The position numbers were made by a program, and so were the translations under genes. DNA of 64,000 nucleotides. Origin: a virus. Shown one piece after another: positions 36,261 through 37,166 of the stretch. The notes under the pieces are model-generated. The model did not search any database and was not told where the DNA came from. It saw only the letters and a list, made by a program, of their open reading frames with translations. How positions within the stretch are numbered: position 1 is the stretch's first letter; each line of letters begins with the position of its first letter. The stretch lies in the IMG/VR virus record IMGVR_UViG_3300035101_000063. One strand, given 5' to 3'.

Positions 36261-37166
36261 TCATATTTTATAAATCCTTTCAAAAGGAACTTCATCTGAT
36301 GTAAAACCACAAGCCCTTGGGTGACCTCCTCCTCCACGTTCTTTTGCTATCTCAACTATATCCATACTTTCAGAATAAAGTGAAACAGTCCAATTCTTAC
36401 CGTTATGACAATATACAGCTACAAAAGGATAATCCTTTATTCTATCTCCAAATATTTCAGACCCAGAAATAGCAGAATTACATACAAGTATCCTATACCC
36501 ATTTAAATAAGCTTCATATGCCCATCTATCAATAGCTGCTTTATTTATCATTGCTGTATGCTCACAAAGCAACTTTCCATTCTCTAATAATCTATCAGTA
36601 TCAAAAAATAATCTATCCCATACTTCTTTATTTTCAGGACATGGCTCACCCATTAATTTGAAACTCTCATGAAACCATCTAGATTCATCACCATACTGAA
36701 AACGCCATACATCTCTATCACCAATCAAACGAATTGATTTAGGACACATTTCCAACGAATTTTCTCTTATTTTAATATTATGTCCTTCAATTTTAAAATT
36801 GAAATACAACCAAGTAAGTTCACAACCTGAAAAATCAACAGACCTTAAACCACGAATATGCTTAAACGAATCAAGATTTTCTATGGCACTTATATGATGG
36901 TCAATCCATATCACATTATGTGTCTTTTTAACCAAACCTGACATAACATCTGGTTTTAAACTAAAATCAACAATAACAACTCCTTCATCCTCTTTAATTC
37001 TATCAATCGGAAATTCTTCATTATAATTTATAGATATACATTCTACTGAAGTATCAATAAAATCTTCACCAGGACAAATACCTTTTGCAGAACCAGTAAT
37101 AAAATTCCTAGCAATATACCCAGCACATTTACCGTCAGCATCCCTGTGATAAAAAACCTTCATCAT
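36261..37166 (-). CDS. DHH-DHHA1 phosphoesterase (NrnA-like nanoRNase/pAp phosphatase family)
   Basis: Motif I YHRDADG. A DHH motif (WIDHHIS). A GGGH motif (GGGGHPRACGF) at the C-terminus. Confidence 0.75.
   Translation of the reverse strand: MMKVFYHRDADGKCAGYIARNFITGSAKGICPGEDFIDTSVECISINYNEEFPIDRIKEDEGVVIVDFSLKPDVMSGLVKKTHNVIWIDHHISAIENLDSFKHIRGLRSVDFSGCELTWLYFNFKIEGHNIKIRENSLEMCPKSIRLIGDRDVWRFQYGDESRWFHESFKLMGEPCPENKEVWDRLFFDTDRLLENGKLLCEHTAMINKAAIDRWAYEAYLNGYRILVCNSAISGSEIFGDRIKDYPFVAVYCHNGKNWTVSLYSESMDIVEIAKERGGGGHPRACGFTSDEVPFERIYKI

Follow-up and report, generated by a model that had tools for sequence, protein, structure and literature searches.

We show that the gene at 36261–37166 on the minus strand of a 64,000-nucleotide viral DNA (the whole stretch analyzed here, hereafter the window) is a real and intact phage gene, and its DHH-DHHA1 product is best read as a short-oligonucleotide exonuclease for nucleotide salvage or RNA 3′-end repair. 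By sequence the protein is NrnB-like, not NrnA/GdpP-like. With moderate confidence, we propose a metal-dependent exonuclease that converts short linear oligonucleotides into 5′-mononucleotides, probably for nucleotide salvage beside the dTMP pathway. Our observations cover the fold, an intact set of catalytic motifs, a close relationship to NrnB and the genomic neighborhood, and from them we infer the substrate, the polarity and the physiological role.

The gene, its translation signals and the domains of its product are laid out as follows.

36261..37166, minus strand: DHH-DHHA1 phosphoesterase gene, 301 aa plus stop, NrnB-like, PHROG 4771
37171..37176, minus strand: Shine-Dalgarno sequence AAGGAG, 4 nt 5′ of the first ATG and 7 nt 5′ of the second
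36097..36264, minus strand: 55-aa ORF, function unassigned, whose ATG overlaps the DHH stop codon as ATGA
36699..37163, minus strand: N-terminal DHH catalytic domain, about residues 2–156, from invariant columns and model secondary structure
36522..36698, minus strand: helical linker between the domains, about residues 157–215 with a long helix at 190–215, from DSSP on the AlphaFold2 model
36273..36521, minus strand: C-terminal DHHA1 domain, about residues 216–298, with G278-GGG-H282

The ORF of 906 nt encodes 301 aa and its N-terminus reads MMKVFYHRDADG. The Shine-Dalgarno sequence, the ATGA overlap and a dN/dS of about 0.29 together indicate that the gene is real and under constraint. The last value comes from 13 synonymous and 16 non-synonymous differences to the copy in L081, which is about 96–97% identical. 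The stop/start overlap makes co-translation with the 55-aa ORF probable, and no homologue of this small ORF was found in the other loci examined. The gene sits within a long one-directional array of small ORFs, with the terminase and head genes about 22 kb downstream in the direction of transcription. A promoter/terminator scan found no enrichment of promoter-like sites in the window, with 45 seen and 46.7 expected, and at this chance level it lends no support to the placement among early genes in the initial annotation.

All three motifs that the initial annotation quoted are present in this minus-strand ORF: YHRDADG at residues 6–12, IDHH at 88–91 and GGGGH at 278–282. Within the DHH domain, motifs I, II and III correspond to D9/D11, D67 and D89-H90-H91, and motif IV to D150/D152 in the segment GDRDVW. 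Among 47 aligned relatives, whose members are 35–85% identical, H7, D9, D11, D67, D89, H90, H91, D152 and G279–H282 are invariant. This set is also nearly invariant in 168 wider-family sequences, at least 160 of which keep the metal-binding residues D9/D11, D67, D89-H90-H91 and D152. The DHHA1 GGGH aligns to that of NrnA, TmPDE and DhhP, and only 19 residues remain after its histidine, so the protein has no C-terminal extension.

A confident AlphaFold2 model built from the family alignment (pLDDT 93.5, pTM 0.85) consists of an N-terminal α/β lobe (DHH) and a C-terminal one (DHHA1), connected by a helical linker. This is the two-lobed fold expected of the DHH/DHHA1 superfamily. Every one of the 50 PDB matches listed by Foldseek is a DHH-DHHA1 protein, the best being 6mtz from H. 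pylori (E 1e-13), and chains of the NrnA, TmPDE, GdpP and RecJ types come next. Thus, the fold confirms the superfamily and does not single out a subfamily. The best matches in BFVD are "DHH phosphohydrolases" of jumbo phages and giant viruses with TM of 0.6–0.74, and one of them is a Bacillus phage AR9 protein annotated as NrnB.

At the level of family profiles, PHROG 4771 "DHH phosphoesterase" matches residues 4–299 with an E of 1e-43. The Pfam models score below their gathering cut-offs, 21.9 bits against 28.1 for PF01368 (DHH) and 22.1 bits against 25.9 for PF02272 (DHHA1), so the protein belongs to a divergent branch of the superfamily. Its membership in the DHH/DHHA1 superfamily rests on the motifs, the PHROG 4771 match and the two-domain fold. 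On these grounds the initial call of a DHH-DHHA1 phosphoesterase is correct.

The family is widespread. A search of 5.8 billion proteins gave 499 homologues at E≤1e-3, many of which IMG names as NrnB, COG2404. In a set of 1.84 billion proteins, a profile of the 47 relatives matched 4,524 cluster representatives at E≤1e-30, a number that rises to 13,712 at E≤1e-10, and nearly all of these are stand-alone proteins of 270–320 aa. By tblastn the family occurs in 69 deposited phage records, all at less than 30% identity, with hosts or types including Vibrio, Pseudomonas EL, Caulobacter, Brevundimonas, Ralstonia and Erwinia. These matches are annotated as "DHH family protein/phosphoesterase" or "ssDNA exonuclease".

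The closest relatives, with 48–96% identity, exist only in metagenome assemblies. A megablast search with the surrounding 12 kb gave no match in 50,697 phage records, so none of the deposited records searched comes from a close relative of this phage. Hence, the protein is a new, divergent member of a populous and already annotated phage family.

The initial annotation placed the protein in an NrnA/GdpP-like family, which is imprecise. With the identical family HMM and database size, B. subtilis NrnB (COG2404) scores 69 bits (hmmsearch, E 3e-18), where profile positions 4–282 align to NrnB residues 5–295. The best PDB chains of NrnA, TmPDE, DhhP, Rv2837c and GdpP reach at most 35 bits and mostly align only around GGGH. 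The NrnB sequence was confirmed by exact look-up (P0121, "oligoribonuclease NrnB"), and the comparison with NrnA is based on PDB chains and an NCBIfam model. An hhalign comparison of the family alignment with NrnB gave a 98.3% probability and an E of 1.5e-14 over 262 columns across both domains. The family and NrnB also have a common motif IV context, L-I-G-D-Y-D-V-W in the former and V-R-Q-Y-D-T-W in the latter.

The subfamily models agree. The NCBIfam NrnA equivalog NF053633 scores 17 bits against a cut-off of 350 and only at residues 243–289, and the GdpP-like model PRK14538 scores 11.7 bits against 707. The NrnB-like assignment follows from the full-length match to NrnB together with these low equivalog scores and the low scores of the NrnA-type chains. 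The N-terminal half alone, searched by phmmer against the PDB sequences, returned only noise.

The R-x-R-x-R motif in the DHHA1 domain recognizes substrate and comprises R262/264/266 in B. subtilis NrnA (PMC9757072). It is absent here, where the aligned segment is S262-L-Y264-S-E266. Tyr264, the residue of the window sub-clade at the position of a DHHA1 arginine conserved in NrnA and NrnB, was considered as a mechanistic signature of the family and dropped. Residue 264 is mixed among the 168 wider-family sequences (Tyr in 82, Arg in 73 and Phe in 9), and therefore it is given no mechanistic weight.

One alternative is a RecJ-like exonuclease acting on ssDNA in phage recombination, replication or repair. 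The RecJ OB-fold and extra domains give a processive grip on ssDNA. The 301-aa protein is the DHH-DHHA1 core only and has neither. Moreover, the archaeal RecJ equivalog NF053576 scores 10 bits against a cut-off of 360, and no recombination or replication gene recurs beside the DHH gene in 80 viral loci. We regard a RecJ-like role as highly improbable.

The NrnB-like exonuclease that we favor has characterized counterparts. NrnB is defined biochemically as a 3′–5′ exonuclease on RNA of 2–5 nt and by complementation of orn mutants (PMC12709177, PMC10570053). NrnB proteins purified from three clades digest RNA starting at its 3′ end, with 2–4-mers among their substrates (PMC12709177). With the B. 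subtilis enzyme, a DNA 5-mer and an RNA substrate are degraded at about equal rates (PMC10570053). An extension of more than 100 aa in NrnB clade A is diagnostic of activity on long RNA, whereas the short forms prefer dinucleotides or short RNA (PMC12709177). The phage protein has no such long extension, so di- to penta-nucleotides should be its preferred substrates.

In this model, the DHH domain would hold two Mn2+ or Mg2+ ions via D9, D11, D67, D89, H90, H91 and D152, and the DHHA1 domain (GGGH, S236, S262 and D269) would clamp the substrate. The 5′-mononucleotides would be released singly, probably from the 3′ end as in the characterized NrnB proteins. In this phage the enzyme probably completes the breakdown of RNA and DNA fragments, from host or phage, to NMPs and dNMPs. 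The released nucleotides would feed the neighboring pathway of dTMP kinase, ThyX and dCMP deaminase, and nanoRNAs would be removed.

The window is part of a large tailed phage, with 127 of its 140 ORFs on the minus strand. It also encodes a helicase, a tRNA-Pro and a tmRNA (Rfam RF00023, 109 bits). The structural genes, the sigma factor gene and the genes of nucleotide metabolism are located as follows.

4777–6393: major head protein, with a protease also among the structural genes
10084–11760: portal, a structural gene
11763–13814: large terminase, a structural gene
61382–62017: sigma factor
38374..39099, minus strand: dTMP (thymidylate) kinase, about 1.2 kb upstream of the DHH gene and co-oriented
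39166..39735, minus strand: DUF5662 protein, syntenic with the dTMP kinase and DHH genes in close relatives
43292..44005, minus strand: flavin-dependent thymidylate synthase ThyX, nucleotide-metabolism context
46207..46782, minus strand: dCMP/cytidine deaminase, nucleotide-metabolism context

Thus, the context of the DHH gene points to nucleic-acid metabolism. ThyX and the dCMP deaminase both lie within 10 kb of it. The linkage to dTMP kinase is kept where the DHH protein is 64–96% identical to the window copy. In L081 (about 96–97%), L232 (85%) and L230/231 (64%), the order is DUF5662, dTMP kinase, three to four small ORFs, DHH and, further on, an MVP-like protein, with ThyX or dCMP deaminase further upstream. 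A relative with 48% identity has other neighbors, a SpoU methylase and a radical SAM protein. Nucleotide recycling was the first alternative offered by the initial annotation, and it fits the evidence best, as the dTMP kinase, ThyX and dCMP deaminase neighbors are conserved in relatives.

Across the wider family the neighborhoods vary. We surveyed 147 DHH-anchored loci, 80 viral and 67 from genomes or MAGs, and found no universal neighbor among them. The commonest neighbor cluster in the viral loci is a sigma factor, at 16 loci that are mostly related to each other. Nucleotide-metabolism neighbors are rare in the 147 loci, with ThyX at four, deaminase at three and dTMP kinase at two.

RNA-repair genes recur in the same survey. 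Of the 147 loci, 16 have RlaP within 8 kb of the DHH gene and six have a CCA-adding enzyme at that range, and these linked loci represent about five lineages with DHH proteins 25–58% identical. They raise a tentative and rather unlikely alternative, in which the enzyme retains the NrnB-type chemistry with a different substrate and purpose, as a partner in RNA (tRNA) 3′-end repair. Its task would be to trim 3′ ends that are damaged, truncated or wrongly extended, or to take off a 3′-phosphate or 2′,3′-cyclic phosphate. RlaP and the CCA-adding enzyme would then rebuild the tRNA end and so counter the host's tRNA-damaging defenses.

The gene orders are suggestive of such a partnership. Five loci (L022, L087, L093, L108 and L041) have the order RlaP, a gene x of unknown function, CCA-adding enzyme and DHH, with CCA–DHH gaps of 3–16 nt and with x missing from L041. 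In L092, the order is RlaP, DHH and a Pnkp-like protein of 763 aa that combines a kinase, a calcineurin-like phosphatase and a T4 Rnl1-type ligase domain. Starting from RlaP instead, 28 of 80 RlaP-anchored viral loci have a DHH gene 2–4 kb downstream. It comes immediately after the CCA gene in 23 of these 28, often with overlapping stop and start codons.

Two of the loci differ in the DHH gene itself. Between L148 and L150, RlaP is 86% identical, x 64% and the CCA-adding enzyme 63%, but the DHH protein is only 23% identical, so a distant DHH gene has replaced another at that position. Such a swap at one position argues that a DHH function is wanted there.

The activities of the partners are consistent with end repair as well. 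RlaP extends damaged RNA 3′ ends by one or two NMPs and contributes to restoring functional tRNA (PMC12776372). The toxin MenT3, which extends tRNAs, is counteracted both by RNase PH, a 3′ exonuclease, and by the CCA-adding enzyme (PMC11541572). Besides its tRNA-Pro and tmRNA, the window genome itself encodes both repair nucleotidyltransferases.

25916..26896, minus strand: RlaP-family RNA-repair nucleotidyltransferase, about 9 kb from the DHH gene
59958..61295, minus strand: CCA-adding tRNA nucleotidyltransferase with an HD domain, about 23 kb from the DHH gene

However, these distances mean that the DHH gene of the window is adjacent to neither. About 89% of the DHH loci have no RlaP nearby. 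A CCA-anchored scan found 27 loci with DHH directly downstream, all from one broad gut-phage group, and a 28th, L260, in which 3.7 kb separate the two genes. No adjacent DHH gene is present in the 46 viral CCA loci closest in sequence to the window CCA-adding enzyme, L260 being the lone exception at its 3.7 kb. As the CCA–DHH adjacency is confined to one phage group, our confidence in the RNA-repair reading for the window gene is lowered. Moreover, the HD domain is found both in the window CCA-adding enzyme and in those of the DHH-linked loci, so that the phage CCA-adding enzymes already bear a phosphoesterase domain.

The repair idea can be widened to the whole clade, for which we see a slim chance. 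The virus-wide NrnB-like DHH clade would then be a dedicated RNA 3′-end trimming or healing enzyme that works with RlaP and the CCA-adding enzyme in repairing the tRNA acceptor end, with the window copy as a dispersed member. The defenses countered could be those that leave tRNA 3′ ends truncated, phosphorylated or extended, such as the MenT/AbiEii-type nucleotidyltransferase toxins and the CCA-cutting tRNases.

The initial annotation had put forward an anti-signaling nuclease as its headline. Such an enzyme would hydrolyze immune messengers, including c-di-AMP, the cyclic di- and trinucleotides of CBASS, the cOA of type III CRISPR and SAM-AMP, and would thus disarm the abortive-infection effectors. 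This idea is not new, as Iyer et al. 2021 speculated so for jumbo-phage DHH enzymes (PMC7824862). It is chemically possible in the superfamily because other DHH enzymes cut such messengers: c-di-AMP is a substrate of GdpP and CnpB, cA4 of a membrane DHH nuclease and SAM-AMP of NrN (PMC7824862, PMC12255297).

Our data lend the headline no support. The protein is much nearer to NrnB than to any cyclic-dinucleotide phosphodiesterase, and none of the three purified NrnB homologues cleaved c-di-AMP, while CnpB did under equal conditions (PMC12709177). PADLOC has no match for the protein at E≤1, and the recurrent neighbors are nucleotide-metabolism and RNA-repair genes, not anti-defense genes. The structural matches are all DHH-family housekeeping or repair enzymes and none is a known anti-signaling fold. 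No experimental account of an anti-defense DHH enzyme from a phage turned up in our literature searches. We therefore consider the anti-signaling role very unlikely.

Large phages and giant viruses commonly carry stand-alone DHH phosphoesterases as auxiliary enzymes, and these form thousands of sequence clusters. Deciding among oligonucleotide recycling, RNA-end repair and immune-signal destruction would give function to a large block of viral dark matter. For the window ORF, our analysis is mostly a correction, from NrnA/GdpP-like to NrnB-like and toward a context of nucleotide and RNA metabolism. The lead worth pursuing is the recurrent cluster of RlaP, CCA-adding enzyme and DHH in gut phages, which suggests a testable module of tRNA 3′-end repair. 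The added value is modest and lies in the reassignment to the NrnB type and in this association as an alternative role.

Among the known systems, NrnB is the nearest. The phage protein shares with it the stand-alone DHH-DHHA1 architecture, all the catalytic motifs, a profile alignment over the full length and the YD(V/T)W context of motif IV. It also resembles NrnB-B of Campylobacterota and NrnB-C of Bacillota in having no long C-terminal extension, whereas the extension conserved in NrnB clade A (more than 100 aa after DHHA1) is absent here. It differs from NrnB in its identity of only about 23%, in being phage-encoded within the huge virus-associated clade of PHROG 4771 and in having Tyr264 (SLYS) in place of Arg (SLRT), although half of the wider phage family keeps the Arg.

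With NrnA, Pde2, CnpB (Rv2837c) and TmPDE (COG0618) as well as GdpP, it shares the superfamily fold, the metal-binding motifs and the GGGH(P)R(A)A(G) signature. However, the sequence similarity to the NrnA-type proteins is essentially restricted to the region around GGGH. The characterized NrnA proteins work in the 5′–3′ direction, whereas the NrnB proteins work 3′–5′. Unlike GdpP, it has no TM, PAS or GGDEF domain, as DHH and DHHA1 cover all of its 301 aa.

The PHROG 4771 proteins of phages and giant viruses resemble it by HMM, tblastn and predicted structure, and are equal in size and architecture. Their carriers include Pseudomonas phages EL and PaBG, Erwinia phage PhiEaH1, Ralstonia phage RP12, Caulobacter phage CcrColossus, Vibrio H20-like phages, Klosneuvirus and Marseillevirus. 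The window protein differs from those of the deposited phages in being less than 30% identical to any of them. Literature searches found no experimentally characterized PHROG 4771 protein from a phage or giant virus.

To our knowledge, no anti-CBASS, anti-Pycsar or anti-type III enzyme family has the DHH-DHHA1 fold. Acb1 is a 2H phosphoesterase, Apyc1 is a metallo-β-lactamase-fold enzyme and AcrIII-1 is a DUF1874 protein. The phage protein has only an idea in common with Acb1, Apyc1, the AcrIII-1 ring nuclease and the phage SAM-AMP lyase, that of a small phage phosphodiesterase removing a nucleotide signal. Their folds and catalytic mechanisms are unrelated to its own, and we found no sequence, structural or contextual link between them.

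In the gut-phage contigs L148-L227 and L279-L312, a common gene cluster runs from the RNA-repair nucleotidyltransferase RlaP through a 310-320-aa protein without a Pfam match and a CCA-adding enzyme with an HD domain to the DHH phosphoesterase. Two examples and a third, differently composed locus are as follows.

L148 10001-14254: RlaP-to-DHH cluster
L150 8015-12320: RlaP-to-DHH cluster
L092 2180-6311: RlaP, then DHH, then a Pnkp-like protein, on a contig of a Christensenella MAG

The occupants of the DHH slot in the gut-phage cluster are only 23% identical, while the RlaP proteins of the same phages are 86% identical. 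Some of these contigs, such as L161 and L162, also encode a P-loop kinase and an RNA ligase of the T4 Rnl1 type ~8 kb upstream. Among the loci seen, L092 ties the DHH family most tightly to RNA repair, its three genes being separated by 3 nt and one overlap. The 763-aa Pnkp-like protein there is trifunctional, with AAA_33 kinase, calcineurin-like phosphatase and T4 RNA ligase 1 domains.

The window itself has the following features around and beyond the DHH gene.

17231-17305, minus strand: tRNA-Pro(TGG), next to the tmRNA
18004-18354, minus strand: full-length tmRNA (Rfam RF00023, ARAGORN)
30672-33326, minus strand: 884-aa MVP-like protein (PF11978)
34579-35286, minus strand: 235-aa protein of PHROG 874 (unknown function; E 1e-46)
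39166-39735, minus strand: DUF5662 protein (E 3.6e-28)
61382-62017: sigma-70-family factor

The tmRNA scores 109 bits with RF00023 against a gathering score of 47, and its tag peptide by ARAGORN is VRHNDSQVWAEAA. A CCA-adding enzyme and RlaP are encoded in the same window as the tmRNA and tRNA-Pro(TGG), and the phage thus has several genes for maintenance of the translation apparatus.

The 65,298-bp contig CAYUTF010000008.1 (L081) is near-identical to the window, with a 96% identical DHH and the same neighbours. It is binned in a MAG that represents a GTDB species and bears the label 'uncultured archaeon', and an 85%-identical DHH protein, P0004, is assigned to a 'Candidatus Lokiarchaeota' MAG. 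Because the window carries the tmRNA, the sigma-70-family factor and Shine-Dalgarno sites, the phage host is almost certainly bacterial, and both archaeal-labelled bins probably contain mis-binned phage contigs.

The strand asymmetry of the window is extreme. Minus-strand ORFs make up 127 of the 140 of at least 45 aa, the GC skew is -0.27 to -0.56 in each 2-kb step at 31-38% GC, and more than 100 small ORFs are packed between 14.5 and 64 kb.

Just upstream of the dTMP kinase gene, the DUF5662 gene is consistent across the phage lineage (L081, L230-L232), and the two unrelated loci L044 and L090 likewise have DUF5662 close to DHH. The PHROG 874 protein, without a Pfam family match, is encoded ~1 kb downstream of DHH and found in L081 too. 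Besides the shoulder domain of major vault protein (E 3.6e-24), the 884-aa protein has a weak match to the Vault_3 repeat and none to a PHROG, and its C-terminus is long and coiled-coil-like. It is kept ~1.7 kb downstream of DHH in the relatives L230 and L231, at 870 aa, and such an MVP-like protein is unusual for a phage.
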